Virus record (IMG/VR): IMGVR_UViG_3300018420_002445
Span: 5,974-69,973 of that record
Strand: one strand, 5' to 3'
DNA from: a virus
Length of the DNA: 64,000 nucleotides
Positions within the stretch are counted from its first letter, which is position 1. Every line of letters starts with the position of its first letter. Made by a program: the position numbers and the translations under genes. Positions 1 through 20,575 of the stretch are shown piece by piece. The notes under the pieces are model-generated. The model had not been told where the DNA came from. It worked only from the letters and a program-made list of their open reading frames with translations, and did no database searches.

Positions 1-1031
1 ACACCTACAATATCTGTACCTAAAAATGCGTTTTTCCAATTTAATTTTTTGCCGTAGCCCAATGCCGCGGCTCCTAATGAATTACCTGCATCACCTGGAT
101 TAGGCATAATCCAAATGTTCTCAAAGTATTGACCTAAAAATCTATTAGCAGAACAGTTAAGTGCGACTCCTCCGCCATAGACTAAGTTGTCACTCTTGTT
201 TAATTGTCTTGCTTTGCTCATTACTATCTTAATAAGTTTTTCTACGTATACTTGTGCTGATGCGGCTATGTCGAACTCATCTGCACCTTCTAAGAATGAA
301 TCGTCAATACCAATGTGTGTATTTTCTTTAAACAACAATGAATCTGTGTGGGCGCCGAACTTATCTTCTATGTCTTTAACATATTTAGGCTCACCATATG
401 CGGCCACACCCATTAAAATGTATTCTTCATCTAGTGGGCGTAAACCTAATCTTGCTGTCATTGCACTATAGTATAATCCAATAGAGTTAGGATACTTAAG
501 TGTCCACAACTTTTTATATTTTGCTTTGCCTTTTTTATTGTAATAACCTTTCCAAATAGTAGCACAATCATTTTCACCGATCGCATCTATAATAACTATA
601 GTTGCTTCATCAAAAGATGATGTTTGAAAACTGGCTGCCGCATGACATTTGTGATGAGGGTGCGTTTGAACAAAGTGAGGTATATGTCCGTCATGCATAA
701 AATGACCCCATTGTTTTGTAACTCTTTCATATAGAGTATTGTATATGTCAGTACCAAAAATGTCTGAAAAATTAAATGGTCCTAACTTTTGACCTGCTCT
801 AAACTGGCGCCAGGCTTTTACCCAAGGTCGTTCATAATAGTTTACAAATAACCGGTCGCCGTTATCTACCCATTCTAATGCTTCATCGATAATTTCAGGA
901 CACAACTCTGAGTCATGTTTCTTTTTACTATATCGTTCACTGTGACCTGCAAATAAAATGTCGCCGTTGTCGTCTACCAAAGATACGCCGGCATCATGGA
1001 ATCCGCAACTAATGCCTAAATATTTTTTCAT
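1..1031 (-). CDS. O-carbamoyltransferase (NodU/CmcH/TobZ family), 3' end runs off the window
   Basis: Not in the ORF track. Manual translation from ATG 1031 gives MKKYLGISCGFHDAGVSLVDDNGDILFAGHSERYSKKKHD, followed by HHKCHAAASF, VIIDAIGE, EYILMGVAAYG, LVYGGGVALNC and IWIMPNPGDAGNSLGAAA. These are the Kae1-like N-terminal motifs of this family. Confidence 0.93.
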   Translation of the reverse strand, partial: MKKYLGISCGFHDAGVSLVDDNGDILFAGHSERYSKKKHDSELCPEIIDEALEWVDNGDRLFVNYYERPWVKAWRQFRAGQKLGPFNFSDIFGTDIYNTLYERVTKQWGHFMHDGHIPHFVQTHPHHKCHAAASFQTSSFDEATIVIIDAIGENDCATIWKGYYNKKGKAKYKKLWTLKYPNSIGLYYSAMTARLGLRPLDEEYILMGVAAYGEPKYVKDIEDKFGAHTDSLLFKENTHIGIDDSFLEGADEFDIAASAQVYVEKLIKIVMSKARQLNKSDNLVYGGGVALNCSANRFLGQYFENIWIMPNPGDAGNSLGAAALGYGKKLNWKNAFLGTDIVG

Positions 1032-1177
1032 TTGTAAATAAACGGATCTCTTTTTTTAAGTTCTGCTAAACGTTTCTTGTATTCTTTTTCACGTTTATAT
1101 TTGATGTAGGGCGTCTTTAAGAAATCAGCAATCTTACGTAAGACATTTTTAATTTTATCAATTATCTTTTTAAACAT
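1028..1177 (-). CDS. 49-aa basic protein coupled to the carbamoyltransferase
   Basis: Manual translation MFKKIIDKIKNVLRKIADFLKTPYIKYKREKEYKKRLAELKKRDPFIYK*. The TGA overlaps the carbamoyltransferase ATG (ATGA), and the ORF fills the gap exactly. Confidence 0.75.
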   Translation of the reverse strand: MFKKIIDKIKNVLRKIADFLKTPYIKYKREKEYKKRLAELKKRDPFIYK

Positions 1178-1920
1178 TTGTATTCCTCATTAAAGTTAAT
1201 CAATTCATCAGCAAATAATTTATGCGGTTCTTCGCCGTGATGCCAATACTTTGCTTTTTCGTTGACATATCCCAGACGTTGATATTTTTGATAAAATGCT
1301 TCGTCTTTATTGTTTAACTGATAGTATTTATTATCATCTACCAAGGGCAGAAGATTTTTGATAGCAGGTATATCATCTAAAAAGAATGGCATTGCATTTA
1401 ACATCATATAAGGAATTTTATGTGATTGCAACAAATACTGTATTTGTAAGATTAATTGATATGATTGGTATTCTAAGTAAGGTTGATGATTAGCCATAAA
1501 TTTGTGCAAGTCCGGAGTATATCTTTGTTCTTCTTCATCTCCACCATTCCAACCTATAATAACTTTATAAAAGTAATCACTGCTCTTTTCGTACCAATCA
1601 GTTGAATGTGATGCACTTTGATAGTTGCGTTCTGATTCACTAGGCATTTCTAATCTAGTAGGTTCTGTCCATGATACAAGTACATTGACGTTCATAGTAT
1701 CTGGATTATAACAATTGTGAAACCAGTGCATTACTTGTCTACTAATACCTGTATTAGTTGCACCTACTTGTGCGATATTAACTGGTTTACGTTTTAACTT
1801 TTTAGCAACCAATGCACCGTATGAATGCAGTCTATTGTAGTCTGAATCTTCATTGCCGTCAATCTCAGATCCTGCGGCATGTGAACATCCAGCAATTAAT
1901 AATATCTTTTCTTTTTTCAT
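1162..1920 (-). CDS. SGNH/GDSL-like hydrolase or acyltransferase, paralogue 1
   Basis: N-terminal LIAGCSHAAG (block I Ser), NIAQVGATN (block II) and C-terminal HHGEEPHKLFADEL (block V His). Confidence 0.65.
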   Translation of the reverse strand: MKKEKILLIAGCSHAAGSEIDGNEDSDYNRLHSYGALVAKKLKRKPVNIAQVGATNTGISRQVMHWFHNCYNPDTMNVNVLVSWTEPTRLEMPSESERNYQSASHSTDWYEKSSDYFYKVIIGWNGGDEEEQRYTPDLHKFMANHQPYLEYQSYQLILQIQYLLQSHKIPYMMLNAMPFFLDDIPAIKNLLPLVDDNKYYQLNNKDEAFYQKYQRLGYVNEKAKYWHHGEEPHKLFADELINFNEEYKCLKR

Positions 1921-2798
1921 GCTACTCCTCTCAATCGTTTTACGGTTTCATCATAATCTAAATAAAAACTGCCATTATATCTTTCTGTAAAATATCTCAT
2001 GTTTGCTAATACATTTAATTCTGTAAACAAATCTGTTCGTTCAAAAAGTTCCCAACCAGTATACTTACTTCGTTTATCTTGTGTCCAAGAATTTTGATTG
2101 TACAACGTTCTTTTAATGGGTATTGACGATCTATGCGAAAACTCATTGTTTACTAACTTTTTAATAATTGGTTCTTCTAAAAACGCAAGTACTTGTTCAC
2201 CTGTATATGAACCAAAATCTGAAGTGCCGGGTATTTTGCGAGATTCAAACCAATTACTATAACTGTTTATTCTTTCCATTTCTTCCCAACACCATGTTCC
2301 TTCTTCTGTTTTAATTAATTGCGGTTCACTTGCCATAACCAATGTACCGTCTACTTTAATAAGTCCTTCCATAAGACTACACATCTGATAAGAACAACAT
2401 TTAGATTCTTCTGCATTGTCATATAATTTACCGCTTCTAATTAAATCTTCTAAATCTATATCTATTACAACTGGATCATAGTTATACTTATTGCACCAAT
2501 TTAATGCATATCGTGTGTCATGTTTATTATATTTAAAATCTTTACCATAACTTATAATTGCAACTTTAAATGGTATTTCTGCTTCTCTAAAAACATTAAC
2601 CATATACTCGCCGTCGTTGCCTCCCCCAAACATAAGATGTAAATCATTATTTGATTTTTCATATAGTATGTGAGCAGATGTAGTTGCTTCTTCGTAGAAT
2701 GACCCTACTCTGTTTTTTACCGGTTTAATATCAACTGTAAACTCGTTTCCGTTACCACTGAATACTAAACAATCATCATGTACTACGCCTATTTCCAT
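1917..2798 (-). CDS. PP-loop / adenine-nucleotide alpha-hydrolase-like protein with a degenerate motif
   Basis: LMFGGGNDGE resembles SGGxDS, in a beta-alpha-beta context. ATGA overlap with the next gene. Confidence 0.4.
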   Translation of the reverse strand: MEIGVVHDDCLVFSGNGNEFTVDIKPVKNRVGSFYEEATTSAHILYEKSNNDLHLMFGGGNDGEYMVNVFREAEIPFKVAIISYGKDFKYNKHDTRYALNWCNKYNYDPVVIDIDLEDLIRSGKLYDNAEESKCCSYQMCSLMEGLIKVDGTLVMASEPQLIKTEEGTWCWEEMERINSYSNWFESRKIPGTSDFGSYTGEQVLAFLEEPIIKKLVNNEFSHRSSIPIKRTLYNQNSWTQDKRSKYTGWELFERTDLFTELNVLANMRYFTERYNGSFYLDYDETVKRLRGVA

Positions 2799-4666
2799 TA
2801 AGAATGAAACTCCGTGTCATCAAAATTTGGGCTCCATGTTAGTTTTAAATATGTTTCTCTATTGTGTTCTAATATGGGCATCATTTGTTCGTACATATCA
2901 TGTAGTTCTGACAGAGGTTTATCTAAAATTGATTTAATCAACTCTAATATTTTTCTTAAACGTTCGCCGTGATCTTCAGTTTCATCATAACTTTCGTCCC
3001 AAAACTGATCAAACGTTTGATAACCAGACTCTTTAATATACTTTAATGTATGCGGTGGTGCTAATAATATAAACGGCTTCATGTATTGTATTGGTTGCAA
3101 TACTTTTTCACTATAGTTCGCACAAGACTGTGCAAATCTAGTTTCTGTTACAATATCTACAAACACATTTCTATAAAAGTTTGCTAACATTGTTTCTTTT
3201 GTATTGTATAATGATGGTGTTTGTCCGTCTTTGTATTCTGCAACTTTAGGCCAAATTGCTTCTTGCGAATCGATTCCTATATCACTTGGTTTGTCTACAG
3301 TATAGGGTGCATTCTCTTTACATACTAAATTATTATCTGTTAACTGTTGATAAACTTCAGGTGATGTTGTCATCCATTGATCGATATCAAAATATAAATT
3401 GTCTTTTACAACATCTAATGAATCACTAAAGTACCAACTTAAATAACCATTTTCTCCTGCTAAAAAGTTTGCTAAGATTTGACGATGTTTTGTAAATCTC
3501 CAGTTCAATGATATAAAATGTTTATTGAACTTGTGCTTGTGAAAGTCTTCTTTAATCAATGCGTGTAGTCCTACAATAGGACGTTGTGACATAAGATATA
3601 GGTCTTCACATTCTAAGTTTAGTGCGTTAGCATAATGTGGATAAGATTCTTTGATTCTATATTCACCAGTCTTAACTGTAATCATCATAGGCTTTATACC
3701 ATTGCGATGTTGATAACGTTGAATAGAATCTAATTCTTTAGAACGCATTCTACTCTTATCTTCAGGAAAAGAAAACTCACTATAAAATCCCTGTGTAAAT
3801 TCTTCTCCTTCATAATACGAACACATAGGTTCAAATAACCATATAGTCAATCCCCATCTATTAATTTCATCTACACCATGTTGATCATGTTCAATCTCAT
3901 CAAGTTCTTTAATATAACCATTGTGCATGTATATCATGTGAAATTGTTGTTGATCGTTTTGCGGGTTGATTAAAGGCAAGATTGATGTCTGTACAAACGG
4001 ATGCGACAGTTCTGGCTTTGCATGTTTGTTAGGTACATTAATAGGAAACAAATGTTCTAGTTGTCCAACGTAAGATTCTTTACCTACTAATTGTAACATA
4101 TACATTTTCTTTTTGCCTACGTTTGCATATGATACTTTTGTATCAGCCCAAAACTTAAACCAGTCTCCCTTCTTCCAATTAGTGTGTGGTATGCCACCAA
4201 TTTCTAATAGATGTCCTGGTTGCCAGTCTTCTAACATTAAGTAACCGATCATTACGTCATCAGGATCTGCTTTGTTTTCTATGCAATAATCAGTGATTGT
4301 AGGGACATGCGGGGGAATAACATCATACTGACTTAAACGAACAAATTTAAGACCTTGATCAAACAGTCCAAATACTTTTTCTATATCATTTGCCCACGTA
4401 GGTATAGTCGGTTCAGTGTATTCTTCTACTGTAAAATTAATTGCAGTATTTGTTAAATAACCTTCTTTGTGATACAATGATACTCTTTCGGTTGATAATG
4501 TAGGACGAGTATAAGGCAAAAGCCTATGTTCTTTTTGCCAAGTAACTCCAAAATGACCTCTTTCAGTTTCAGTGTTAATGTTGTACCCCTTTGTTAAAAA
4601 TTTCGTATGTTGATAAATTAGGATAGTCTTTATATGACCATAGTTTAGGTACACGTGCAATTGCAT
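2798..4666 (-). CDS. Fusion of a degenerate 2OG-Fe(II) oxygenase-like N-domain and a putative transferase C-domain; start uncertain (possibly 4579)
   Basis: The N-terminal ~200 aa parallels 8571..9161 (IPPH...MLEDWQPGHLLE...WKKG...ANVG...LQLVG). The C-terminus has DIVTET-SEK-KPF-GYQTF-WDESYD, shared with 13907..15211 and 16177..17706. Confidence 0.55.
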   Translation of the reverse strand: MQLHVYLNYGHIKTILIYQHTKFLTKGYNINTETERGHFGVTWQKEHRLLPYTRPTLSTERVSLYHKEGYLTNTAINFTVEEYTEPTIPTWANDIEKVFGLFDQGLKFVRLSQYDVIPPHVPTITDYCIENKADPDDVMIGYLMLEDWQPGHLLEIGGIPHTNWKKGDWFKFWADTKVSYANVGKKKMYMLQLVGKESYVGQLEHLFPINVPNKHAKPELSHPFVQTSILPLINPQNDQQQFHMIYMHNGYIKELDEIEHDQHGVDEINRWGLTIWLFEPMCSYYEGEEFTQGFYSEFSFPEDKSRMRSKELDSIQRYQHRNGIKPMMITVKTGEYRIKESYPHYANALNLECEDLYLMSQRPIVGLHALIKEDFHKHKFNKHFISLNWRFTKHRQILANFLAGENGYLSWYFSDSLDVVKDNLYFDIDQWMTTSPEVYQQLTDNNLVCKENAPYTVDKPSDIGIDSQEAIWPKVAEYKDGQTPSLYNTKETMLANFYRNVFVDIVTETRFAQSCANYSEKVLQPIQYMKPFILLAPPHTLKYIKESGYQTFDQFWDESYDETEDHGERLRKILELIKSILDKPLSELHDMYEQMMPILEHNRETYLKLTWSPNFDDTEFHS

Positions 4667-5201
4667 CGTCTAATTTATCTAAGCCTAACTGTGCTGTTTC
4701 AAATGTCATATGATAATGATATCCAAATCTTTTGATTTCTTGGTCTGCCCATGCGGCTTCTAATTCTGGCCTACCGTCATACCTTATCTGTCTTAAAATT
4801 TCTGCATCTTCTGCATTGTCTAAAAGTATCATACCGCCTTTACCAACACTCAAATGCTTTTTAAGTTGAAAACTTACACACATAATAGTTGATGGTATGT
4901 ATGAGTTTTGTCTCCACATTGTTGCGGCATCAAATACATTAGTGTTGCCTATTTGATATAACTCTTGCCATTTTTCTGAAGTAAAATACCAATCATAACC
5001 TAACTTTTCAAACGTCATGGGTATAGACAAATATGTCCAATTAGGACAAGTAACTTGATATTTTATTCCACGATCACCTTCATCTATCAATCTTAATGCT
5101 AACTCAATACCATGTGTGCAACAATCAACTGCGACTGCATAGGGTGCACCGAAATAATTTGATACTCTTTCTTCTAATTGTAATATTGGATTCATCTTCA
5201 T
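4575..5201 (-). CDS. DegT/DnrJ/EryC1/StrS-family PLP aminotransferase, short form
   Basis: YAVAVDCCTHGIELAL, VFDAA, SFQLKKHLSVGKGGMIL (Schiff-base Lys region) and GYHYHM. Confidence 0.85.
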   Translation of the reverse strand: MKMNPILQLEERVSNYFGAPYAVAVDCCTHGIELALRLIDEGDRGIKYQVTCPNWTYLSIPMTFEKLGYDWYFTSEKWQELYQIGNTNVFDAATMWRQNSYIPSTIMCVSFQLKKHLSVGKGGMILLDNAEDAEILRQIRYDGRPELEAAWADQEIKRFGYHYHMTFETAQLGLDKLDDAIARVPKLWSYKDYPNLSTYEIFNKGVQH

Positions 5202-7549
5202 GGTAATAATTTAGGGTCAAGTTTTGGTCTGCCTTGTTGTGGTTTCTTTTTAAGAATAGAATCTAGTGTTATTGCTTGTTCCATTTCTGCTTTTTGCGGC
5301 AAGTCTAAATCTTTAGATGAATCTCGTCTTTCTGCTTTTTCTGCTAGTGTGACTTTATATTGATCTAAGTCTTCCCAGTCTCCTGTTCCTTGCCAATCTA
5401 ATTCAAATGAAAAGTCGATACTTGCATTTAATTCTTCTTCTTCACGTAGCAAGTCAGTAAAGTCTTGTCCTGACCTACCTTCATTTACGTCCCATTCTGC
5501 TTTTGCTAATTTTCTTGCACGTTTAGCAGTGTTGGCTTGTATACGTGAATAATCTTGTGCATAGAACGGACCCTTTCTGCCTTCTGGGGGCGGTTCTCTG
5601 TCATCATAAGGATTATCAATTTGATCAAATTTCATTTTAAAATCTGCTGTCCATTGACCTGCATGATCAATTTTAAAATTGTATTCAGCATTAAACATAC
5701 CCGGTCCATACTGAGTGCCGAACTCTTTTAAATCTATTTCTGGATTAAATCTAATGTTTGCTGTGTATCCGCCTCTTGCTCTCCAAAGATTTCTTAAGAA
5801 AGGCCAAATCTCATTAACAAGATGATTAGCAAAAACATTGTTGTTGCCGTTCTTATCTCTTATATCTTCTTTAATAATGTGATAATCAAAGTCTTCTTCA
5901 TATTCTAATGATCCTTGAAATTCTTCATCATCTAATATTATATGGTAATGTTCTTTCTTTAACGCATCTCTAATAGGGTATGTAATAGGAACTTCTGTAC
6001 AGTTTTGAAAAAAGTCTAACCACATATGAATAAGTTTAACTCTCATCATTACATGTGTGCCGCCCATCTTAAAGTCATTTGATATCCAATGACCTTGATA
6101 CTTATGCCACGACACATTGTATGCATGTGGATTTTGTCCTACGATTGTTTCAGGGCCTAAGCCGTAGCCAACACCCAATCCCATGTTGTTAATGTTATTG
6201 TTTCTGTTACGCCACATGAATGTCATAGTGTCTGAATAGTCTTGGTAGTCTTCTGTAGGGAATGCTACGATCCAGTTTGTTGCTCCCCATATACCTACTT
6301 TCTTACAGTCAATAAAGTTTTGTTCCATTGCCTCGACAGTTACACCTTTATGCATATCATCTAATACTTTTTGTGAGCCTGACTCACAACCAAAGTTAAA
6401 CATGATACAACCGCCGTCTGCTAAGTCTTGTAGATATTCTAAGTCCATACGTTTATCACAACGAGCATAACCAGTCCATTTGACTTTTAATTCTTTTGCT
6501 TTACATGCAAGTGCAAAGGCACGCAATTCTTTAATGTTACCATTGATTAACGAGTCAATAAACCAAATAACATCTGTACCTTTATTATAATATAACCATT
6601 CGATTTCGTCAATCAAATCTACTGCTTGTCTTTGACGATATCTCCAAAAGTGTGTCTCCTCACAGAACGTACACTTTGCAGTACAGCCTCGACTAAACTC
6701 TGAGTTGACGCCGTTAGGTACATCATACAAACTAAAATCAATTGATTCATAGTCTGGCATAGGCAAGTTATTAATATTAATTCTTTCACTTTCTGCTTGA
6801 TCTAATATCTTAGGTCCGTCATGTTCGATGCCTTCTTCGATTTCTTCTAACATGACTAAAAGATTCTTTTCACCTTCACCAATGACAACGTAGTCATAAT
6901 AATCTTCGATAGCAAACCAACTTTTATGTACGTTTGGTCCACCTACTGAAATTTTAATACTTGGATCACGTTTCTTAATTTCTTGCATCATATACTTACT
7001 AGGTTCTTCTGAAATATAATACAACGAAAAGCCTACAACATTAGGTTTCATTTCTAATATTCTTTCTATCTGTTCATCAAGCAACGGTTTAAGTATAGGA
7101 TGAATGTCAGTAGTGTAAGTAGGAGGCAGCCAATGCCAAGATGACGATGGATCCCAAAGTCTGAACGGAAGTTTCTCGTTTGGCTGCCAATCTTTTCTAT
7201 ATTCCTGATACGCCATTGCGTTCAAGTCTATAATAGTTGTTTCATATCCTGCGGCTTTTGCAATACCTGATAGTCTTGCTAACGAAAAAGGTGGCATATA
7301 TGGTGACCATTCAGGACACAATACTAATACCATAGTAGTTTCACGTGTTTTGTAGTCTACATAAACTGGAGTTAAATTCTTTTGTTGTACTGGCTTAGCA
7401 TATTCAGAAATAGCCATCATCATGTCATGGTGTCTTGCATCTCCCACATCTGACGGCGGTTTGGGCTTTGGTTCATTTTTTCTTGCTAATGATTGTAGTG
7501 TAAAATCCATACGTTGCTTGTTTACTCCCGTTACATGTATATTTAACAA
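5198..7549 (-). CDS. Cobalamin-binding radical SAM enzyme (class B methyltransferase-like); likely start ATG 7510
   Basis: N-terminal B12-binding-type region (PPFSLARL...VGFS...VGGP...GEGE), SRGCTAKCTFC CxxxCxxC motif and GCESGSQKVLDDMHKG. A GGGAG SD precedes ATG 7510. Confidence 0.88.
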   Translation of the reverse strand: MLNIHVTGVNKQRMDFTLQSLARKNEPKPKPPSDVGDARHHDMMMAISEYAKPVQQKNLTPVYVDYKTRETTMVLVLCPEWSPYMPPFSLARLSGIAKAAGYETTIIDLNAMAYQEYRKDWQPNEKLPFRLWDPSSSWHWLPPTYTTDIHPILKPLLDEQIERILEMKPNVVGFSLYYISEEPSKYMMQEIKKRDPSIKISVGGPNVHKSWFAIEDYYDYVVIGEGEKNLLVMLEEIEEGIEHDGPKILDQAESERININNLPMPDYESIDFSLYDVPNGVNSEFSRGCTAKCTFCEETHFWRYRQRQAVDLIDEIEWLYYNKGTDVIWFIDSLINGNIKELRAFALACKAKELKVKWTGYARCDKRMDLEYLQDLADGGCIMFNFGCESGSQKVLDDMHKGVTVEAMEQNFIDCKKVGIWGATNWIVAFPTEDYQDYSDTMTFMWRNRNNNINNMGLGVGYGLGPETIVGQNPHAYNVSWHKYQGHWISNDFKMGGTHVMMRVKLIHMWLDFFQNCTEVPITYPIRDALKKEHYHIILDDEEFQGSLEYEEDFDYHIIKEDIRDKNGNNNVFANHLVNEIWPFLRNLWRARGGYTANIRFNPEIDLKEFGTQYGPGMFNAEYNFKIDHAGQWTADFKMKFDQIDNPYDDREPPPEGRKGPFYAQDYSRIQANTAKRARKLAKAEWDVNEGRSGQDFTDLLREEEELNASIDFSFELDWQGTGDWEDLDQYKVTLAEKAERRDSSKDLDLPQKAEMEQAITLDSILKKKPQQGRPKLDPKLLP

Positions 7550-7598
7550 AATTTCACACCTGCAATATTTTTACGACTACCCTTTTCTACACTAAATA
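7540..7598. promoter_or_regulatory. Divergent pair of TAAATA late-promoter-like boxes
   Basis: TAAATA on - at 7540-7545 and on + at 7593-7598. Each is followed by GGAGTA and then an ATG (7510 on -, 7622 on +). Confidence 0.5.
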
Positions 7599-7621
7599 TT
7601 AACATAGGAGTAGTTAAACTT

Positions 7622-8584
7622 ATGTACAGCAAAAATGAATGGGGTAAATTAAAGAAGGTAGTCGTTGGTATTGCAGATAATGCACGTATACCAGAAGTTG
7701 ACACCAGCCTTCGACACATCAATTATGCTGACGTTAAAGATGAACTAGACATTCCTACAGGGAAGTACCCCCAAATAGTCGTTGATGAAGCAAATGAAGA
7801 TTTAGAAACATTTGCTGACTTTTTGAGAAACGAAGGCGCGGAAGTAGTTAGGCCCGACATCACGGAGTGTAATTACTACAACTATTGTCCGCGGGATTCC
7901 GTTATTGTTTATAAAGATAAGGCTATTGCTACTCCTATGCCTCTGAGAGCCAGACGTAACGAGTACCAAGCATATGAACGTCATTTAGAAAACGTACATC
8001 CATATGATATTATACGCAGTGATGATCTTTACAACACAGAATGCTTGGGCGACCCAGACGTATTAGCATTAACAGAGGCAGAACCGGCATTTGATGCCGC
8101 TAATGTGTTACGTGCTAATGATGATTTATTATACTTAGTTTCTAACTCCGGTAACAAATCTGGTGCAAGTTTACTACAAAGCATCGTTGATGGCAAAGTA
8201 CATACAGTAGAGGGTATCTACAGTTATATGCACTTAGACTCGACTGTGTGCTTTCTCAGAGACGGTTTGATGCTACTTAACCCTAGTAGAGTCAAAGACG
8301 TTAATCAATTACCAGAACCATTTAGACATTGGGATTACATAATGTGTCCAGATCCTGTACCAATTGGACACTATGAAAATTATCGTAATTCATCAAACTG
8401 GGTAAGTATGAACTTGTTCTCAGTTAATTCAAATTTAGTTGCACTAGAAGAAAGACAAGAACCTCTTAGAAAAGAACTAGAAAAACACGGCATTGAGTGT
8501 GCTATGTTACCTATGAGACATGCAATTACATTGGGTGGATGCTTTCATTGTGTAACTAACGACTTAATACGTGAAGATGATTAA
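7622..8584 (+). CDS. Amidinotransferase (glycine / inosamine-phosphate amidinotransferase family)
   Basis: NEWGKLKKVVVG, YCPRD, FDAAN, HLDST and C-terminal GGCFHCVT carrying the catalytic Cys. Confidence 0.9.
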   Translation: MYSKNEWGKLKKVVVGIADNARIPEVDTSLRHINYADVKDELDIPTGKYPQIVVDEANEDLETFADFLRNEGAEVVRPDITECNYYNYCPRDSVIVYKDKAIATPMPLRARRNEYQAYERHLENVHPYDIIRSDDLYNTECLGDPDVLALTEAEPAFDAANVLRANDDLLYLVSNSGNKSGASLLQSIVDGKVHTVEGIYSYMHLDSTVCFLRDGLMLLNPSRVKDVNQLPEPFRHWDYIMCPDPVPIGHYENYRNSSNWVSMNLFSVNSNLVALEERQEPLRKELEKHGIECAMLPMRHAITLGGCFHCVTNDLIREDD

Positions 8585-9161
8585 AGGCAAAGTAGAAGTT
8601 ATATGGACTGAAGAAGATTATATGAATCTTCCTTGGTTTACAAACGATGTGCATGAAGAAAAGTTTAATGCAACTGTAGAAACTAAAGGGTATGATGTAG
8701 GTGTTTCTATGTGCTTTGAAGATTTGCCTGAAGTCTTTCATAAAGTAGTAGAACAATTTGATTTCTTAGACAAAATTGTCATTGCAATTAACAAACTAGA
8801 AGTAGGTAAAATCTTACCATTTCATACTGACAGATTCATGTCATACAAACAACGAAACAATATCAGTGATAATCAACCAATTGAACGTGTGATTGTGTTC
8901 TTACATGATCAAAAGAAAGGCCATCAATTGTGGATAGAAGATGAAGTGTGTACGGGGCCTGCAGGATCATATTTTGGATGGGAACAAAACACTGAACATA
9001 TGGCCGCTAATTTAGGCGATGAAGATAGATATATTATGCAGGTTACAGGTATTACTAAAAATCGTGTAAAAGAACCACAGCATCCTTCTGAGGGAGAAGC
9101 CTCTTTAAATTCTTATGGCGATGTTGTTATCTATCGTAATGGTACTTGGGTACGCCCTTAG
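8571..9161 (+). CDS. 2OG-Fe(II) oxygenase / cupin-fold protein
   Basis: LPFHTD (HxD), distal EHMAAN (His) and RYIMQVTG. Confidence 0.7.
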   Translation: MKMIKGKVEVIWTEEDYMNLPWFTNDVHEEKFNATVETKGYDVGVSMCFEDLPEVFHKVVEQFDFLDKIVIAINKLEVGKILPFHTDRFMSYKQRNNISDNQPIERVIVFLHDQKKGHQLWIEDEVCTGPAGSYFGWEQNTEHMAANLGDEDRYIMQVTGITKNRVKEPQHPSEGEASLNSYGDVVIYRNGTWVRP

Positions 9162-9412: not shown

Positions 9413-10285
9413 TTAAGGTCTGCGTAAAATAGTTTTCTTTTTTGCAATGTCATCAACAATGCATCGTCCTAGTTGTTCGTGTCCCATTGGCGATGGGTGA
9501 TTATCGTAGGGCTCGCCGCCTATACGTTCATAGTTATATCGATGACATCTAGTTTCAAGACCTAATGGATCATCTTCTAACATTGGAAAACGATCATATA
9601 TGTAGTCTTGTATTTCTTGTGGCATTGCGGCAACATATTGATTAAAGTACCAGTAATAACACTCAATTCCTTTACTAGTCAAAAAATCATACAAGAATCC
9701 CATATGAAATAACCAAGTATACATTCCTTCTTGGTCAGTGTAAGTTCTATATCTGCTTTGCCCTTGTTTGATGACATCAGGATCATTATGATTTTCAGCA
9801 AATGATATAAGACCATGTGGATTTACCTTAGCCCATCGATCTAAATTATGTAAAACATCATAATTATTATTGTTTATTTTTTGCTCATGCCAAATATCTT
9901 CTTTCTGCATAGGTGACACTTGATATCTTTTTTGAAAGTCATCTTGTTCTTCTTTTTTAGGAACATAATATTCATATCTGTCTTCACATGACCATTGAAT
10001 GATAACTGTAGTATTTTTTAAAGTTTCTTCGTCTTGTTCATTGACCCAATCAAATGTAGTTCTACATATACGTTGATTGCTTCCGCAACCTTCAGCAAGA
10101 TTTACACATCTATCAAAGTTCATTAGTTTTTTTACGTGAGCAGGCCAAACAATGTTAGCATGTAGATAGTCTAGGTGTTCTTTAGTGCCCGGTTCATGAG
10201 GAAGATTAAATTGATTTTCTTTGCTAGGTCGATCTAATCCGCCACCATATGTCCAACTACAACCGTTAACGAATAGAGTTTTCAT
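9413..10285 (-). CDS. SGNH/GDSL-like protein, paralogue 2
   Basis: LFVNGCSWTYG, NLAEGCGSN, IIQWS and DNHPSPMGH. Confidence 0.7.
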   Translation of the reverse strand: MKTLFVNGCSWTYGGGLDRPSKENQFNLPHEPGTKEHLDYLHANIVWPAHVKKLMNFDRCVNLAEGCGSNQRICRTTFDWVNEQDEETLKNTTVIIQWSCEDRYEYYVPKKEEQDDFQKRYQVSPMQKEDIWHEQKINNNNYDVLHNLDRWAKVNPHGLISFAENHNDPDVIKQGQSRYRTYTDQEGMYTWLFHMGFLYDFLTSKGIECYYWYFNQYVAAMPQEIQDYIYDRFPMLEDDPLGLETRCHRYNYERIGGEPYDNHPSPMGHEQLGRCIVDDIAKKKTILRRP

Positions 10286-10640
10286 ATAATGCCTGTGCTT
10301 CTGGTTTTAATTGTATATCGAACATGTCTTCAAAGTATGATTGTGCATATAAAAATCCACCTTTGTCATAAAAGTCAGTATTGAATTCAAATATAACTAA
10401 CGGATTGTAATCAGGCTTGTCTATAGTGTGTGCTAAAATAAAAACACTGTCTTCTCGTAAATCTTCAGGAATAGAATCAAAATCATCACTACGAACAACA
10501 AGAGTTTTATTCGCAGATTCAACTATGTCTCTGTTTAATTCTAAGACAGTTTGATGTTCGTTCATTACTTCATCATCATATTCTAGCATGTTTGCTATTT
10601 CAGATGAAAGTCCTATTAGATATATTCTTTTTGTAATCAT
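10266..10640 (-). CDS. Hypothetical acidic protein
   Basis: 124-aa ORF overlapping both neighbours in the operon; no motif recognised. Confidence 0.65.
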   Translation of the reverse strand: MITKRIYLIGLSSEIANMLEYDDEVMNEHQTVLELNRDIVESANKTLVVRSDDFDSIPEDLREDSVFILAHTIDKPDYNPLVIFEFNTDFYDKGGFLYAQSYFEDMFDIQLKPEAQALYENSIR

Positions 10641-12565
10641 AATTTAGTTAGCCATGCTTTGCCAAAGTTTCTGCGCCTTGCAAAGAAGATTTGCTCACAA
10701 AATCTTTCAAGTGACTGTTCTTTATCTTCTGGGAAGTCAAACTCATACTCTGCCGGAGTTTCTAACTCACATTGATCTTGTAAGTAGCCAGATATGTCAT
10801 GTTCAAATTGAATGTTTAATGGATAATCTGCTTTATCTTCAAAGTTGATTAAGAACTTACGTTGAAACAACATTAAGTCTTGGAATAATTCATGTGATAA
10901 TAAATCACCATATCTTTCTTTAACAAATCTTTCGATCATATCGAATACTTGTTTGTGTTTGCTTTGTCCTTGAAGATTAATAACTGTACTATGAATTAAG
11001 TTCCAACCGTGTATCTCCATACCTTGTATCGGTTCGTGGTCTATTTTACCATTTTCTGTCCAATTAAAGTAATGTTCTCTGATTCGTTCCATTTCATCAT
11101 TTATCCATGGATCTTGTTTGATAAATTCTAACAAGTTATCATAGAAATCTTCATATTGTACGCCATGTTTCTTTTCTAAAACTCTGCTGATATAGTTAGT
11201 CATGCCATTAATGTGAAACGTATTCATAAACCAACTAAACAACTGTGCTTCGATCATTTGATCTCTTGGCAAGTCTCTTGTTGAAGTAATAACTTCAATA
11301 CCCTCTTTTACTTCATGTTCATTATAAGTGCCAACTAAGTAATCATAAACAACTCTGCCTTCCATCTTAAACATTTTCTTTTGTGTCAAATTCATTTCTG
11401 CATTTTCAAGCAATTGTGCTTGATAGACAGTAATACCTGTATGATTTCCTGATCTATATAGTTCATAGAAGTTGTTTTTCCATGACCTCAGAGTCTCTCC
11501 GGGCAGGCCTAAGATGAGTTCTGTGTAAAGAGGTATATTATGTTCTTCACATAAGTCAAATACTTGTTCTATTTTGTTTATTTCTAAGTTTTTACGTTTG
11601 ATAATATCAAGGACACCTTCGTCCATTGATTGCACTGATAAGTTAAGACCCATTTTAGATCCTCCCTCATATATCAGTTTTTTAACAATGTCTACTACTT
11701 CTTGTTTTTGATTTTTTGCCCATGCAATTGTATATGCTTTGGGATTGTCATATTCTTTTTGTACGGCAATAAGTTTTTCTGCAATTTTCATATCACGTTC
11801 AGGGAACATACCAAAATTTGCATCTGCTAACGAAATAAAGTCACAACCGTTTTTGCCGACCCATTCTAATTCATCATATACTCTGTTAAGACAAAACTTT
11901 TTAACTTTGTTATATGTTAAACTGCCCCAATCGCAAAATGTACATTGATAAGGACAACCTCTATTTGTTTCAAGTGTGACATTCCATCTGACTTCTGGAT
12001 GTTTTGCCATCAAATCTTTAAATACATCTGTTAAATATGGACTTGGTATTTCATCTAATTCATTGATACGTTCTGGTTCTCCTGTTCTAACAGTTTTACC
12101 ATCTACATTAATAAGTAAACCCGGTATATGTGTAAAGTCTGGCTTATCGTTTTTTAATTCTTCTAAGATTGCTTTTGCTGAACGTTCTCCCTCTTGTACT
12201 ACGACAACATCTATATAGGGAAACTTTTCAAAGAACTCTGGGTCAGTAACCGGGGGTTCAGGACCACCTGCAAAAATAAAGATGTCTGGATTTGATAATT
12301 TTAATTCTCTACCAAGTACGTGATTATATGCACGATTCCAAATGTATGTAGAAAATCCTACGACATCACTATCGGCTAATGTTTTAATTGCTTCTTCGAT
12401 AGGATCTCTGCGCCATATAAACTCACCCAACTCATAATGCTGGTTGATAGAATCAAATTGATTCACATAACTCCAAACAATGCCCGGTGAGTATGGCAAA
12501 TAATATGCATTATACTCTTTGGGTCCTTGTTGAAAGTTAGGGTTTACAAAACTGACTTTTTTCAA
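10637..12565 (-). CDS. Cobalamin-binding radical SAM enzyme (class B methyltransferase-like), TTG start
   Basis: VVGFSTYIWN, AGGPE, QEGE, IPSPYL, ETNRGCPYQCTFCDWG, ADANFG and ELILGLPGET. Confidence 0.9.
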   Translation of the reverse strand: MKKVSFVNPNFQQGPKEYNAYYLPYSPGIVWSYVNQFDSINQHYELGEFIWRRDPIEEAIKTLADSDVVGFSTYIWNRAYNHVLGRELKLSNPDIFIFAGGPEPPVTDPEFFEKFPYIDVVVVQEGERSAKAILEELKNDKPDFTHIPGLLINVDGKTVRTGEPERINELDEIPSPYLTDVFKDLMAKHPEVRWNVTLETNRGCPYQCTFCDWGSLTYNKVKKFCLNRVYDELEWVGKNGCDFISLADANFGMFPERDMKIAEKLIAVQKEYDNPKAYTIAWAKNQKQEVVDIVKKLIYEGGSKMGLNLSVQSMDEGVLDIIKRKNLEINKIEQVFDLCEEHNIPLYTELILGLPGETLRSWKNNFYELYRSGNHTGITVYQAQLLENAEMNLTQKKMFKMEGRVVYDYLVGTYNEHEVKEGIEVITSTRDLPRDQMIEAQLFSWFMNTFHINGMTNYISRVLEKKHGVQYEDFYDNLLEFIKQDPWINDEMERIREHYFNWTENGKIDHEPIQGMEIHGWNLIHSTVINLQGQSKHKQVFDMIERFVKERYGDLLSHELFQDLMLFQRKFLINFEDKADYPLNIQFEHDISGYLQDQCELETPAEYEFDFPEDKEQSLERFCEQIFFARRRNFGKAWLTKL

Positions 12566-13502
12566 TGTAACCTCGTTTGTTAATAAATTTTGCTAACTCG
12601 TCAGCAATAACTCTGTAACCTTTAATAGTAGGATGTGCTCCGTCATCATTAGTAAGATACTCTGAATGTGTACTTAGGTTTCTTGGATTATATATTTCAT
12701 TAAATCCTCCCCAATGTATACTTGCTGGTTTGGAAATCAAACCATCTAAGTCTACTAATTTTTCCATAAACGCAACGTACTCTACATCTGCATCATTGTG
12801 CAGATAACAAGACCAATCAAATTGTGATACTAACGGCCCTGCATATTCTATTAACCAATTCTGTATACCGTCATGCCAATTTTTAGAATCATGCATACGT
12901 TGATTAAATGCATTGGCTAAAATAATTTTAAAATTATGTGCTTTAGCCCATGATTGTAAATTTAATAGTGCTGTCATTGTCATACATGCTACAAATTGTT
13001 CACTCCATAATTCACGTGCATAACAATTCCAAAATTTATAATCTCCTTGATCTGATTCCATAGGCCAAGCAGTGCGCCACTTTTCATGTTTAAAATGACC
13101 TTTGTTGTATCCATCTGGTTCTTTAAATCCCCAATGATCCATTGGTCTTGTTTGAAAGACATCAAATCTTTCAAATCCAGTTAGCATCATAATTACAATA
13201 CCTTCAGAATCATTAAAATCATAATTATTAGCAAAGTGTAATTGATTAACGGCGGCTGTATTTCCAATACCCTTGATTCCTAAATTTATAGATTTATATT
13301 CAGGAAAATGATATTTTGTTAATTGATTAACCCAACTGTTTTCTAATTCATGTTCACGTAAGTAATAATCCGTGTCAGGTTGTCCTTTTTGTCCGGGTCT
13401 AAGTTGCGTATACCCACCGTGTGCGTCTACAACTTCTTTTGGATATCCACCTTCTCCTTGAGTCCAACTACAGCCTAAGCCAATTATATACTTTTGTTTC
13501 AT
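12537..13502 (-). CDS. SGNH/GDSL-like protein, paralogue 3
   Basis: IIGLGCSWTQGEG, NLGIKGIGN and DGAHPTIKGYRVIADEL. Confidence 0.7.
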   Translation of the reverse strand: MKQKYIIGLGCSWTQGEGGYPKEVVDAHGGYTQLRPGQKGQPDTDYYLREHELENSWVNQLTKYHFPEYKSINLGIKGIGNTAAVNQLHFANNYDFNDSEGIVIMMLTGFERFDVFQTRPMDHWGFKEPDGYNKGHFKHEKWRTAWPMESDQGDYKFWNCYARELWSEQFVACMTMTALLNLQSWAKAHNFKIILANAFNQRMHDSKNWHDGIQNWLIEYAGPLVSQFDWSCYLHNDADVEYVAFMEKLVDLDGLISKPASIHWGGFNEIYNPRNLSTHSEYLTNDDGAHPTIKGYRVIADELAKFINKRGYIEKSQFCKP

Positions 13503-13513
13503 GCACTATTACT

Positions 13514-13801
13514 TCACTTTTTAGCAGTCTTACGAGGCGCTTTTTTCTTTTTGGTAACAGTTTTTTTAACCGAAGAGTTTTGCACACCAGGTGTTTTAGG
13601 ATCAGTGTCTTTAAACTTACCCTTAGCACTTTTCTTAACTTTTACGTATGCTTCATCAACGTTAGGTGTTGACTTATCATCACCTTTATATTTACCTTTT
13701 GCATCTCTATTTCTAACAACGACCCAGTCTTCTTCTACTGGTGCTGGGCCAAGAGTAAAGAATGATTTTACTTTTTTCCAAAAACTCATAATAATCTCCA
13801 T
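13514..13801 (-). CDS. Small Lys-rich protein with an internal duplicated motif and a histone-like tail (start possibly 13789)
   Basis: AKGKYKGDDKSTPNV / AKGKFKDTDPKTPGV repeat; C-terminus KKTVTKKKKAPRKTAKK; ATAAATA box at 13823-13829. Confidence 0.7.
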   Translation of the reverse strand: MEIIMSFWKKVKSFFTLGPAPVEEDWVVVRNRDAKGKYKGDDKSTPNVDEAYVKVKKSAKGKFKDTDPKTPGVQNSSVKKTVTKKKKAPRKTAKK

Positions 13802-13906
13802 TAATTAATGTGTTCTAACATCTATTTATTCTATGATGGGTTTGCACAAACCTTTTAACTATCTACCAAACCCTCTTATCCAAGCCCGTTTAGCAGTAAG
13901 AGACTT

Positions 13907-15211
13907 CTATGTTTCATTATTACTTCCCCATATCTGTTCTAAACTTTCATCAACAGAAAAGTAATTTTGGTAGCGGTCCCACAAATCACCGCCGACATAA
14001 GATGAGTCATTTCTATAATGTATGACTACTTCTCTAAAAAAATCTAACACCCAATGAAGTTCACTACCTGTATTATCCATATGATCAGGAGTTAAAACAT
14101 TGTCTAACTTTTCTAATTTATATTCAAGAGGATCGGGTGAATTTATTCCAATGTGATGCATAATGGATTCTGTAGTTATACCGCTTCGCACAGTTGCCAT
14201 ATACCTAAAAAGATTACGTTGTGTTTTTGCTTTTACACTTTCCCACAATCGTTTATAATCATCAGGTGATTTATATATTTCTGACAAATGTTTTATGTTA
14301 TTTACAATAGCATTAATGCGTTGTCTATAATCAGGCCAATCATCAAAACCATAATCAAATATTTCATCATAAAGTTCTATACCCTTTTCTTTTTCTAACC
14401 ATCGATGATAGCCAGGGGCGCCAACAACTAAAAATGGTTTGTGTGCGAACAAAGGTTTACATGTTTTTTCTGACAAATAGAATTCACCTTCTTCTATTAT
14501 ACTTTCTGTTACAATATCAATAACACCTCTGTGGTAACTATGGGGCAATGAATTTGGCCGAAACTGCCAGCCAGAATTTAATTTAAAATCGTGTTCTGCT
14601 GGATGTGGATCTTTTAAAGGCATAAGATAAGGCACATTTCCAATTTCTTCCCAATGTTCTGGTTGCCAGTCCGGCTGTTTTGGATATTCAACTGTAAAGT
14701 GACGATACGTAATTATACCTAAATCTTGTAGACTTTCACCGAATAATTTATTAACAGTATAACTTCTATAATGATCCGGTCTGTTGTTATAACATGTAAA
14801 TAAAAGATCAGGCGAGTAGTCATCACCAATCGGTGTTAAAGTTTTGTCTTCTTGTAAGGGACAAAAATAAGCAAGAACGGTGTGATAATTAATTATGTCA
14901 TAAGTTGAACATACTATTGGTACTACATAATCAGGATAATCATATTGGTATTGTTTACATGATGTAAATGCATAGATTTTTTTTCCTGTTTTGTTACACC
15001 ATTCTTCTAATTCAGATATTGCAATACCATATATACATTTAATGTCTGATTCACTGCCACTGGCTATGATAAATCCTGCAGGATCATGTTGTTCAATTAT
15101 TTTATTAAGATAATCTTTAACTTGTTGCCTTCTTTGCCACTTTGTATATTCATGACCTTGAACGTCAACTGCTGAAGTATTACGATGGTCTAATAAACAC
15201 CATTTAGACAT
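13907..15211 (-). CDS. Putative transferase (DIVTE-SEK-KPF family), paralogue 2
   Basis: FTCYNNRPDHYR, DIVTES...LSEKTCKP...KPFLVVG...FDYGFD. The glycosyltransferase-like role is inferred. Confidence 0.5.
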   Translation of the reverse strand: MSKWCLLDHRNTSAVDVQGHEYTKWQRRQQVKDYLNKIIEQHDPAGFIIASGSESDIKCIYGIAISELEEWCNKTGKKIYAFTSCKQYQYDYPDYVVPIVCSTYDIINYHTVLAYFCPLQEDKTLTPIGDDYSPDLLFTCYNNRPDHYRSYTVNKLFGESLQDLGIITYRHFTVEYPKQPDWQPEHWEEIGNVPYLMPLKDPHPAEHDFKLNSGWQFRPNSLPHSYHRGVIDIVTESIIEEGEFYLSEKTCKPLFAHKPFLVVGAPGYHRWLEKEKGIELYDEIFDYGFDDWPDYRQRINAIVNNIKHLSEIYKSPDDYKRLWESVKAKTQRNLFRYMATVRSGITTESIMHHIGINSPDPLEYKLEKLDNVLTPDHMDNTGSELHWVLDFFREVVIHYRNDSSYVGGDLWDRYQNYFSVDESLEQIWGSNNET

Positions 15212-19899: not shown

Positions 19900-19900
19900 A

Positions 19901-20575
19901 TTAAAACTTTACTCCCAAAGTTATATTAAAAATACTTCTTTCTATTGGATCTTTTGTATAAACATTTTTAAGACCCACTGTTACTTTATCTGTTACACTA
20001 TAATCAAATGATGTTTCGTTTCTTATGTAATCATCTTGTCCTGATTCCCATAACAACTTATTTACAAATGTAACTTTTTTGTTTAAGTTGTATGCATACC
20101 AAAGTGATGAACGTATAATAGGTTCACTAATCTCATTTGAATTAAGGTATGCAATTGAATTTTCTATCGATGCTTTGTGATTTTCTGTTCTGAAAATTTT
20201 ATATCCATGACCCATACCTATTACGATTCTATCATTGTTATCTCTAAATTCATCGTAATCATAACTGGTAGATCCTATTACATAATGCTTTTCAGTTATA
20301 GTTCTAATTGCTTTACCACTAGTTCTAAACTTATTAATTGTTTGCTCACTGTCTTCTGATTTGTAGGCATAGTCTGCATCAAATACTCCCTGCCATATAT
20401 CTGATTCCCATTTATGATCAAACGATCCTGTGAATACAATTGACTCATCGATGTTAACAAACGTTCCACCGACTTTTGCTTTTGTTTCTGCTGATGCAGT
20501 AGGCGCTAATATAATCATTGCGGCAACTGCAAGTAATATAGTCATATCTCCTATAAATTTTAATTTCTTTTTCAT
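19901..20575 (-). CDS. Outer-membrane beta-barrel protein, DUF481/YdiY-like
   Basis: Signal peptide ending ASA, alternating aromatic beta-strands (YDYDEF, GMGHGYKI) and C-terminal ITLGVKF (BAM beta-signal). Confidence 0.75.
   Translation of the reverse strand: MKKKLKFIGDMTILLAVAAMIILAPTASAETKAKVGGTFVNIDESIVFTGSFDHKWESDIWQGVFDADYAYKSEDSEQTINKFRTSGKAIRTITEKHYVIGSTSYDYDEFRDNNDRIVIGMGHGYKIFRTENHKASIENSIAYLNSNEISEPIIRSSLWYAYNLNKKVTFVNKLLWESGQDDYIRNETSFDYSVTDKVTVGLKNVYTKDPIERSIFNITLGVKF

Follow-up and report, generated by a model that had tools for sequence, protein, structure and literature searches.

The 64,000-nucleotide stretch analysed here (the window) covers bases 5974-69973 of L001, a single 69,973-base virus contig (IMG/VR record IMGVR_UViG_3300018420_002445), and has a G+C content of ~35%. 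Bases 1-8584 of the window are filled by seven open reading frames (ORFs), and an eighth starts at 8571. Three of the genes in this region, coding for an amidinotransferase, for an unusually short protein of the DegT aminotransferase type (mini-DegT) and for a small cupin, were found to form the conserved core of the locus, and they may belong to a pathway that makes a guanidino sugar. The features of the region are listed below, in window coordinates unless a contig or locus is named.

7622..8584 (+), StrB1-like L-arginine amidinotransferase, 320 amino acids (aa); profile alignment to PDB structures, catalytic triad.
4575..5201 (-), mini-DegT, a 208-aa aminotransferase-like protein of the type dependent on pyridoxal 5'-phosphate (PLP); Pfam DegT, invariant residues.
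8571..9161 (+), small cupin resembling 2-oxoglutarate (2OG)/Fe(II) oxygenases, 196 aa; invariant HxD...H...R.
4076..4549 (-), N-terminal cupin domain of the 622-aa ORF 2798-4666, a paralog of the cupin 8571-9161.
2801..4054 (-), C-terminal GT-B glycosyltransferase domain of ORF 2798-4666; AlphaFold2 (AF2), Foldseek, VIA-align.
3..1031 (-), O-carbamoyltransferase, N-terminal 343 aa; Pfam; the full gene is L001:5469-7004 (-), 511 aa.
1162..1920 (-), predicted SGNH-fold esterase or acyltransferase of the DUF6071 family, 252 aa; AF2 and Foldseek.
1917..2798 (-), 293-aa protein, possibly a PP-loop ATP-dependent amidating enzyme; a lead only.
5198..7549 (-), class B (cobalamin-binding) radical S-adenosylmethionine (SAM) enzyme, 783 aa; PF02310 B12-binding and PF04055 Radical_SAM.

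ORF 7622-8584 gave no match in Pfam and only a weak dimethylargininase match among the NCBIfam models. Against solved structures, residues 4-317 of its 320 were aligned with StrB1, the inosamine-phosphate amidinotransferase (PDB 1bwd), at E 2e-60 and 208 bits; HsvA (118 bits, E 5e-33), AGAT (103 bits) and SxtG (95 bits) were also matched end to end, SxtG being the weakest and most distant of the four. Asp158, His204 and Cys310 are invariant in all 51 sequences compared (the window, 49 viral loci and phage S-SCSM2R), and on the alignment these positions correspond to the residues that we take to be the StrB1 triad, Asp179, His227 and Cys332. The phage protein therefore shares with StrB1 the full-length alignment, the Asp-His-Cys triad and the C-terminal GGxFHC motif, and it is similarly compact, without the extra segments of AGAT (320 aa against 348 in StrB1 and 386-423 in AGAT). 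It differs from StrB1 in being 28 residues shorter and in lying, in a phage, among glycosyltransferases and nucleotide-sugar enzymes rather than in an aminoglycoside cluster. Judged by this alignment, the protein belongs to the amidinotransferase family (AGAT/StrB1, pentein fold), and transfer of the amidino group of arginine is predicted. Its homologues make up 2267 clusters at 90% identity, and relatives occur in 13 named phage records, one of which is a cyanophage. More distant homologues (25-26% identity) were observed in CP220-type Campylobacter phages (e.g., NC_027997, 75917-76972), where the gene of CP220 adjoins a radical SAM gene. According to the accessible text of PMC12801897, purified virions of S-SCSM2R contained another 'glycine amidinotransferase' (ORF266) as well as a prolyl dihydroxylase-like protein (ORF269); ORF266 is a distant paralog, as it gave no tblastn match at E <= 1e-5.

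Mini-DegT matches the Pfam DegT model (PF01041) in two stretches with 62.8 bits against a cut-off of 19.8. A profile of 18 family members covers only residues ~35-85 and ~148-251 of the ~375 in the DegT target, and what is missing relative to an ordinary DegT protein is the N-terminal segment, ~60 internal residues and the entire C-terminal domain. The gene is not a broken one, because its size is held across the viral loci (192-213 aa in 43 of 45, the other two being called at 234 aa) and across a family of 1320 clusters at 90% identity, mostly viral, in which nearly all of the 120 clusters listed measure 190-210 aa. Lys115 (in SFQxKK), Asp91 and Ser110 are found without exception in the 18 sequences compared. 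Lys115 and Asp91 align with the corresponding region of 7b0m and 3bn1 and are presumably the lysine that forms the Schiff base with PLP and the aspartate that pairs with its pyridine nitrogen. The best solved relatives are nucleotide-sugar aminotransferases (7b0m, E 3e-10; perosamine synthetase 3bn1, E 5e-10), and the inosose aminotransferases 2c7t and 7b0d were matched by the profile at E 3e-6 and 3e-4. The protein is thus like the DegT/DnrJ/EryC1/StrS nucleotide-sugar aminotransferases in its PLP lysine, its aspartate, the flanking motifs and in passing the Pfam cut-off, whereas those enzymes measure 360-400 aa and mini-DegT, at ~200 aa, is a large family of its own from which the complete fold-type-I architecture (a large and a C-terminal small domain, ~360-400 aa) is absent. 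We therefore file it as a DegT-derived minimal family and not as an ordinary member, given its 208 aa and the partial coverage by the profile.

The start of the cupin gene 8571-9161 overlaps the stop of the amidinotransferase gene by 14 bases. His85-x-Asp87, His143 and Arg153 are invariant in 19 of 19 cupin sequences, an HxD...H...R arrangement that we take to be the pattern of 2OG/Fe(II) oxygenases. Homologues of the cupin matched the Pfam family Asp_Arg_Hydrox weakly (E 7e-4 and 0.011), and nothing significant was found among solved structures with its profile, AtsK appearing at E 0.5 only. The paralogous domain in ORF 2798-4666 was recognised from residues ~40-197, which match cupins of 164-191 aa from other loci (BLASTP), while the C-terminal 418 residues of the same ORF correspond to a free-standing protein of ~390 aa in other loci.

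All window proteins were compared with 49 IMG/VR loci encoding amidinotransferase relatives (57-100% identity). As many of these loci are near-duplicates, they were collapsed at 90% amidinotransferase identity into 18 lineages, the window's own and S-SCSM2R included, and 27 loci with at least 5 kb on both sides of the amidinotransferase gene served as a flank-controlled subset. Mini-DegT was found in 45 of the 49 loci, in all 27 well-flanked loci and in 17 of the 18 lineages, and relatives of the cupin 8571-9161 in 45, 26 and 17, respectively; the only lineage without mini-DegT is represented by L011, whose downstream sequence amounts to 1 kb. Relatives of ORF 2798-4666 are present in 42 of the 49 loci. 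The carbamoyltransferase gene lies within 10 kb in 15 loci (12 of the well-flanked ones and 3 lineages), and the 783-aa cobalamin radical SAM gene, the SGNH gene and the 293-aa gene recur in seven, six and two of the 49 loci. Mini-DegT is usually followed by the cupin and then by the amidinotransferase, the gene ends overlapping, as in L036 (8914-9507, 9504-10004 and 10001-10960). Since the amidinotransferase and mini-DegT genes are together in 17 of 18 lineages, their clustering is not due to chance.

The conserved core is therefore the amidinotransferase, mini-DegT and the cupin, and not the trio of aminotransferase, amidinotransferase and carbamoyltransferase whose co-occurrence in related genomes had been expected from an earlier, sequence-only reading of this DNA. 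Its aminotransferase-amidinotransferase pair stood the comparison, whereas the carbamoyltransferase largely did not. All five enzymes named in that reading (the trio, the cobalamin radical SAM enzyme and the SGNH protein) are present where it placed them, and the StrB1-like nature of the amidinotransferase was borne out by the structural match and the intact triad. Three features lay outside it: the minimal size of the DegT protein, the cupin as the third conserved partner, and the size of the island (more than 25 kb), of which the region is only the edge.

The gene content around the core differs strongly among the loci. Five of them (L009, L011, L016, L045 and L051) hold most of the island gene set of the window, and in the first four the order of the radical SAM genes, the GT-B genes, mini-DegT (none was found in L011) and the amidinotransferase is also kept, with the SGNH gene in three. 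A UDP-glucose/GDP-mannose dehydrogenase gene directly follows the amidinotransferase gene in L049. In L009 (10974-13880, +) a single chain of 968 aa was observed that consists of a 2OG-type cupin, a GT-B glycosyltransferase and a UDP-glucose/GDP-mannose dehydrogenase. Twelve loci form one cyanophage lineage in which the carbamoyltransferase gene follows the amidinotransferase gene on the same strand, after 851-854 bases in 11 of them and after 2299 in the twelfth. The distance exceeds 40 kb in G002 and S-SCSM2R (43 kb in the latter), two cyanophage genomes that contain the module and are complete or nearly so.

A cellular counterpart was found on a Bdellovibrio chromosome (L052), where an amidinotransferase gene (44% identity) is flanked by genes of radical SAM enzymes whose auxiliary-cluster SPASM/twitch domain is N-terminal (N-twitch). 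Beside it lies an overlapping run of genes for an N-twitch radical SAM enzyme, a UDP-sugar dehydrogenase, a short-chain dehydrogenase/reductase (SDR) and a mini-DegT of 222 aa, followed by a GT-B gene of the same family as in the window and by a polysaccharide lyase gene. The cupin is not part of this cellular operon, as hhalign found no relation between the cupin profile and the 161-aa Bdellovibrio ORF after mini-DegT. The same locus also contains three N-twitch radical SAM genes and an outer-membrane beta-barrel protein gene; the window has four such radical SAM genes and a gene of the latter type at 18619-24508. A Rhodobacteraceae contig from a metagenome-assembled genome (L054, 74.7 kb) was considered as host evidence and rejected: the phage match is only 3.9 kb long with 80% DNA identity and frameshifts. 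The end of this contig is a copy of window 4052-7938, from the cupin part of ORF 2798-4666 to the start of the amidinotransferase gene, and the adjoining 6.4 kb do not match the available sequence of the window phage. Possible explanations are a chimera, a mis-binned relative and an integrated fragment.

One earlier listing of the module was found. The accessible text of PMC12801897 gives the genes of the Synechococcus phage S-SCSM2R as 'antibiotic synthesis genes', new to cyanophages according to its authors, and offers no analysis of them there. Among ORF305-ORF310 of that phage (PMC12801897, same text), the 195-aa 'AHBA synthase' is a mini-DegT (49% identity) and the 'inosamine amidinotransferase' is the counterpart of ORF 7622-8584 (62% identity). 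A radical SAM enzyme, glycosyltransferases and a 2OG-Fe(II) protein, which is the cupin, are shared as well. The module of S-SCSM2R differs from the window in having no cobalamin radical SAM or SGNH gene within it, in addition to its remote carbamoyltransferase gene.

The AF2 model of the C-terminal domain of ORF 2798-4666 (2801-4054) reached a mean predicted local distance difference test score (pLDDT) of 76 and a predicted template modelling score (pTM) of 0.80, and all Foldseek matches listed for it at E <= 0.001 are GT-B enzymes. The VIA-align Z values were 9.7 for T4 beta-glucosyltransferase, 9.3 for EXT1-EXT2, 8.5 for FUT11 and 8.3 for an alpha1,3-fucosyltransferase. The GT-B fold is thus supported but the specificity is not, because these values are middling. 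A profile of the domain found nothing significant among solved structures. Two further ORFs of the island, 13907-15211 and 16177-17706, have their C-terminal region in common with ORF 2798-4666 (E 1e-16 to the o509 ortholog; shared targets).

The carbamoyltransferase gene runs 504 bases beyond the left edge of the window. The part inside the window matches Carbam_trans_N of Pfam at E 3e-37, and the full protein of 511 aa matches PF02543 Carbam_trans_N (E 2e-37) and PF16861 Carbam_trans_C (E 2e-50). Its solved relatives are NovN (2.8e-47), GdmN (~1e-44) and TobZ (~1e-35), which agrees with the O-carbamoyltransferase of TobZ type named in the sequence-only reading. It is not NodU itself, since the NCBIfam NodU equivalog model gave 131 bits, far below its cut-off of 1000 bits. 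With the TobZ/NovN/GdmN/NodU enzymes it shares a Kae1-like N-terminal and a YrdC-like C-terminal domain, whereas it is shorter than the solved TobZ-type enzymes (576-702 aa). Relatives occur in 148 named phage records, and the protein is 27-30% identical to the common cyanophage carbamoyltransferases. Directly downstream of this gene, an ORF of at least 1819 aa (L001:3-5459, -) runs off the contig end. It is made of ~17 protein repeats of ~90 aa each with the motif FDFSWHPD...PYIYxFGTQW..GGP, and neither a Pfam match nor a tandem repeat at the DNA level (Tandem Repeats Finder) was found for it. Homology links its C-terminal domain to the N-terminus of window ORF 24508-25467 (E 7e-11) and to the C-terminus of an ORF of 1848 aa located after the SGNH gene in L045 (E 2e-23).

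No SGNH model of Pfam matched ORF 1162-1920, and four scanned homologues match DUF6071, two of them above the model cut-off. Its AF2 model (pLDDT 85.8, pTM 0.88) was matched by Foldseek to a CE2 carbohydrate esterase, TesA and GDSL lipases at the top with a probability of 1.00, and all those listed among the 34 PDB matches at E <= 0.001 are SGNH/GDSL esterases, so the SGNH protein of the sequence-only reading was recovered from the predicted structure. GCS13H, Gly35 and Asn56 (GxSN motif) are invariant in eight of eight family sequences; the C-terminal (E/D)xxH is present but not as one aligned column. The DUF6071 profile gave nothing significant against solved structures. The 293-aa protein is a weaker case: one of 38 homologues carries PF06508 QueC, its nearest Atlas clusters (0.98) have QueC or Asn_synthase in 14-38% of their members, and its profile gave nothing significant among solved structures, with NAD synthetase at E 0.43 only. 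As the profile searches of solved structures were null for four families, the GT-B and SGNH fold calls rest on the two AF2 models. In the radical SAM enzyme 5198-7549, the CxxxCxxC motif reads CTAKCTFC in the translation and the best NCBIfam matches are radical SAM C- and P-methyltransferases, all below their cut-offs; the enzyme is probably a methyltransferase.

The rest of the island (9413..25467, -) was annotated with Pfam and NCBIfam and by synteny with L009, L011, L016, L045 and L051. It contains the following genes, all on the minus strand.

9413-10285 (-), DUF6071 paralog of the SGNH gene.
10637-12565 (-), KedN5-like B12 radical SAM enzyme.
13907-15211 (-), 434-aa ORF with a GT-B-family C-terminal region.
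15204-16184 (-), SDR epimerase/dehydratase; the best-scoring models are GDP-fucose synthase and GalE.
16177-17706 (-), second ORF with a GT-B-family C-terminal region.
17621-18634 (-), radical SAM enzyme.
18619-19899, 20572-21822, 21819-23141 and 23108-24508 (-), four N-twitch radical SAM paralogs.
19901-20575 (-), DUF481 outer-membrane-type beta-barrel protein, inserted among the N-twitch paralogs.
24508-25467 (-), 319-aa protein.

The four N-twitch paralogs scored 309-375 bits against the cut-off of 170 of NF033640. The island extends as far as ~25.5 kb of the window, and to the left it continues in the contig for at least another 6 kb; it abuts tail-fibre-like and giant structural ORFs. Between the tail-fibre-like and the baseplate genes, a single ORF of 6430 aa was observed at 30925-50217 (-).

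The contig has an estimated completeness of ~19% (CheckV). G004, a relative with 99% identity (128 kb, 37% complete), carries genes for a T4-type portal (Gp20), major capsid protein (Gp23), prohead protease and baseplate, and the window itself has a gp25-like baseplate gene, the 6430-aa ORF and gp46/gp47-like nuclease genes. The T4-type genes of G004 and the baseplate and nuclease genes of the window mark the contig as a fragment of a large T4-like myovirus; the host genome of the island is that of a T4-like marine myovirus, with an estimated total of roughly 350 kb, of which the contig covers about a fifth. No DNA match of window 1-9000 (megablast) and no match of a 692-aa structural ORF (tblastn) were found in the named-phage collection, so that the phage has no named relative within that collection. 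In a 20-kb section of G004 (L058, G004:C1:108001-128000), genes for an S-adenosylmethionine synthetase, a NifU-type Fe-S scaffold, a ferredoxin-reductase-like protein and a peroxiredoxin are consecutive, a row that looks like a supply line for the many radical SAM enzymes of the phage. Farther along lies a second tailoring cluster with three methyltransferases, a GNAT protein, a QueC-like PP-loop protein and another DUF6071 gene.

We consider it about an even chance (roughly 50%) that the island makes or decorates a glycan by a route from keto sugar to amino sugar to guanidino sugar and on to transfer by glycosyltransferases, each step being proposed from homology and gene neighbourhood. A nucleotide-activated sugar would be oxidised to a keto sugar by the island SDR, an N-twitch radical SAM enzyme or a 2OG oxygenase, and mini-DegT would transaminate the product to an amino sugar. 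The amidinotransferase would then take the amidino group of L-arginine onto Cys310 and pass it to the amine, giving a guanidino sugar and ornithine, which the GT-B enzymes may place on a virion protein (e.g., one encoded by the adjacent giant ORFs) or on the host envelope. Further decorations, namely O-carbamoyl, acyl, amide and methyl groups on the guanidino sugar residue or on one next to it, would be lineage-specific extras and would come from the carbamoyltransferase, the SGNH protein, the possible PP-loop protein and the cobalamin radical SAM enzyme. That an amine made by a DegT enzyme is subsequently amidinated had already been suggested from the sequence, and it is still the simplest reading of the tightly linked mini-DegT/amidinotransferase pair. 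The proposal is supported by the intact catalytic residues of the amidinotransferase, mini-DegT and cupin and by their tight linkage. On this account the amidinotransferase/mini-DegT/cupin core is an uncharacterised part of a virus-encoded glycan pathway.

A sugar is favoured over a cyclitol, between which the earlier reading had not chosen, because of the glycosyltransferase, SDR and UDP-sugar dehydrogenase neighbours and fusions, the Bdellovibrio operon and the best scores of mini-DegT. In the UDP-4-amino-4-deoxy-L-arabinose (UDP-Ara4N) route, a UDP-sugar dehydrogenase is followed by a decarboxylating SDR and a DegT aminotransferase (ArnA/ArnB). A gene trio of this type (dehydrogenase, SDR and DegT-like protein) is seen in the Bdellovibrio locus and partly in viral loci; unlike in that route, there are here no formyltransferase or lipid-carrier genes, an amidinotransferase follows, and the window is without the dehydrogenase.

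Several observations weigh against the guanidino-sugar proposal. We know of no guanidino sugar in any glycan. A sugar nucleotidyltransferase or UDP-sugar dehydrogenase was not found in the window with Pfam, and the closest solved amidinotransferase, StrB1, acts on a cyclitol phosphate and not on a sugar. Mini-DegT, without a third of the large domain and the entire small domain, may not be an aminotransferase or may depend on a partner. The cupin, weakly similar to protein hydroxylases and fused to a glycosyltransferase, could point to hydroxylate-then-glycosylate chemistry on a protein rather than on a sugar, and it is absent from the Bdellovibrio locus. That cellular example is itself nearly unique, as 401 sampled genomes of the Bdellovibrio phylum yielded eight matches at E <= 1e-20 and only two at E 1e-57 or better. 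A substrate common to the carbamoyltransferase and the amidinotransferase does not follow from the data, since the former is beside the pair in only 3 of 18 lineages and occurs in 148 phage records against 13; the N-amidino, O-carbamoyl building block of the sequence-only reading is therefore supported in part, and the trio as a unit is not. The term 'guanidino sugar' was not met among the matches listed in the literature for guanidino sugar and amidinotransferase, in a search of texts exclusive of supplements. Among those listed for amidinotransferases in phages, over the same kind of text, PMC12801897 was the sole relevant paper. PMC11360552 was rejected, as its accessible text has the word in the reference list only and its topic is GAMT.

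The enzymes could also act on a cyclitol after all, with an inosose being transaminated, amidinated and O-carbamoylated to a diffusible streptidine- or bluensidine-like compound, bluensidine being a cyclitol with a guanidino and a carbamoyl group. StrB1 is by far the best solved relative (208 against 118 bits), inosose aminotransferases belong to the DegT family and are present in the mini-DegT profile matches (2c7t, 7b0d), aminoglycosides are substrates of TobZ-type carbamoyltransferases, and 'antibiotic synthesis' was the label chosen by the S-SCSM2R authors (PMC12801897, accessible text). This route is nevertheless decidedly unlikely: inositol-phosphate synthase, inositol dehydrogenase and a kinase were not found with Pfam/NCBIfam in the window ORFs or the sampled recurrent neighbours of the 49 loci (the contig being ~19% of the genome), the recurrent neighbours are instead glycosyltransferases, UDP-sugar dehydrogenase and SDRs, and mini-DegT scores higher against nucleotide-sugar aminotransferases. 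The analogy with saxitoxin, also drawn from the sequence, did not hold up, as an SxtA-type polyketide synthase/aminotransferase and further sxt core domains were not found in the window with Pfam and, of the four solved amidinotransferases, SxtG stands farthest from the phage protein. Quite unlikely too is an acceptor amine outside carbohydrates, such as a polyamine (as for HsvA), lysine or ornithine (as for AmtA) or a side chain of a virion protein; in the last case, hydroxylation of a residue by the cupin would precede its glycosylation by the fused GT-B domain, in the style of collagen lysyl hydroxylase-glycosyltransferases, for which LH3 and Mimivirus L230 are precedents. HsvA as the second-best solved relative (E 5e-33), an S-adenosylmethionine decarboxylase gene (SpeD) within 10 kb in 13 loci, the weak match of the cupin to aspartyl/asparaginyl hydroxylases, its fusions to glycosyltransferases in the window and L009, and the tail-fibre-like and giant structural ORFs adjoining the island are all consistent with it. 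However, the near-obligate linkage to a PLP enzyme resembling sugar aminotransferases and the dehydrogenase/SDR/mini-DegT operon of Bdellovibrio would be left unexplained, and SpeD, which is common among cyanophages and belongs to the same variable region, is not in the window.

Hypermodification of DNA appears very improbable. It would involve carbamoylation of 5-hydroxymethylcytosine, glycosylation of hydroxymethyl bases, and conversion of a 5-methyl or 5-formyl pyrimidine to a guanidinomethyl base by the oxygenase, aminotransferase and amidinotransferase. Of the structures matched to the GT-B model, T4 beta- and alpha-glucosyltransferases rank among the highest (Z 9.7 and 8.7), although these values are within less than 1.5 of those of many GT-B enzymes that do not act on DNA. 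Distant amidinotransferase homologues are found in the Campylobacter phages described above, the DNA of which is modified. No match to Thymidylat_synt (PF00303) was found in the close relatives G004, G005 and G006 (128, 67 and 55 kb, with ~19-37% of the genome of the window phage covered) or in the two cyanophage genomes G002 and S-SCSM2R, and four records gave neither a TGT match nor a Tet_JBP match above the cut-off. In the accessible text of PMC8670742, a phage enzyme of the TobZ family makes 5-carbamoyloxymethylcytosine, but the DNA-modifying carbamoyltransferases adjoin thymidylate-synthase homologues, whereas those on unmodified contigs adjoin glycosyltransferases, as is the case here. 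There might, finally, be no single pathway, the region being a hypervariable accessory one in which the carbamoyltransferase, SGNH protein and radical SAM enzyme act on other substrates than the amidinotransferase pair. The linkage of the carbamoyltransferase in so few lineages, its distance in G002 and S-SCSM2R and the variation around the core would all agree with this, but the spacing of the carbamoyltransferase gene, near-constant in 11 of the 12 loci of the cyanophage lineage, and the gene order kept in the window subgroup (L009, L011, L016 and L045) speak against it, and we regard the explanation as unlikely.

Returning to the guanidino sugar, we propose tentatively, and with less confidence than for the glycan route as such, that ocean phages make an arginine-amidinated amino sugar by means of a PLP enzyme of 200 aa, a StrB1-like amidinotransferase and a 2OG oxygenase, and that this cationic sugar is displayed on virions or on the surface of the infected cell. 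If so, glycan chemistry would gain a new, permanently cationic building block, and amidinotransferases, which are known from creatine, toxins and aminoglycosides, would operate in viral glycobiology. Mini-DegT, if it is an aminotransferase, would be smaller than any known member of its enzyme class and would probe the minimum of fold type I that PLP-dependent transamination requires. As the module is abundant in marine viral metagenomes and present in a cultured cyanophage, the question is directly testable, and it is relevant to the ways in which marine phages change their own surface or that of their hosts.

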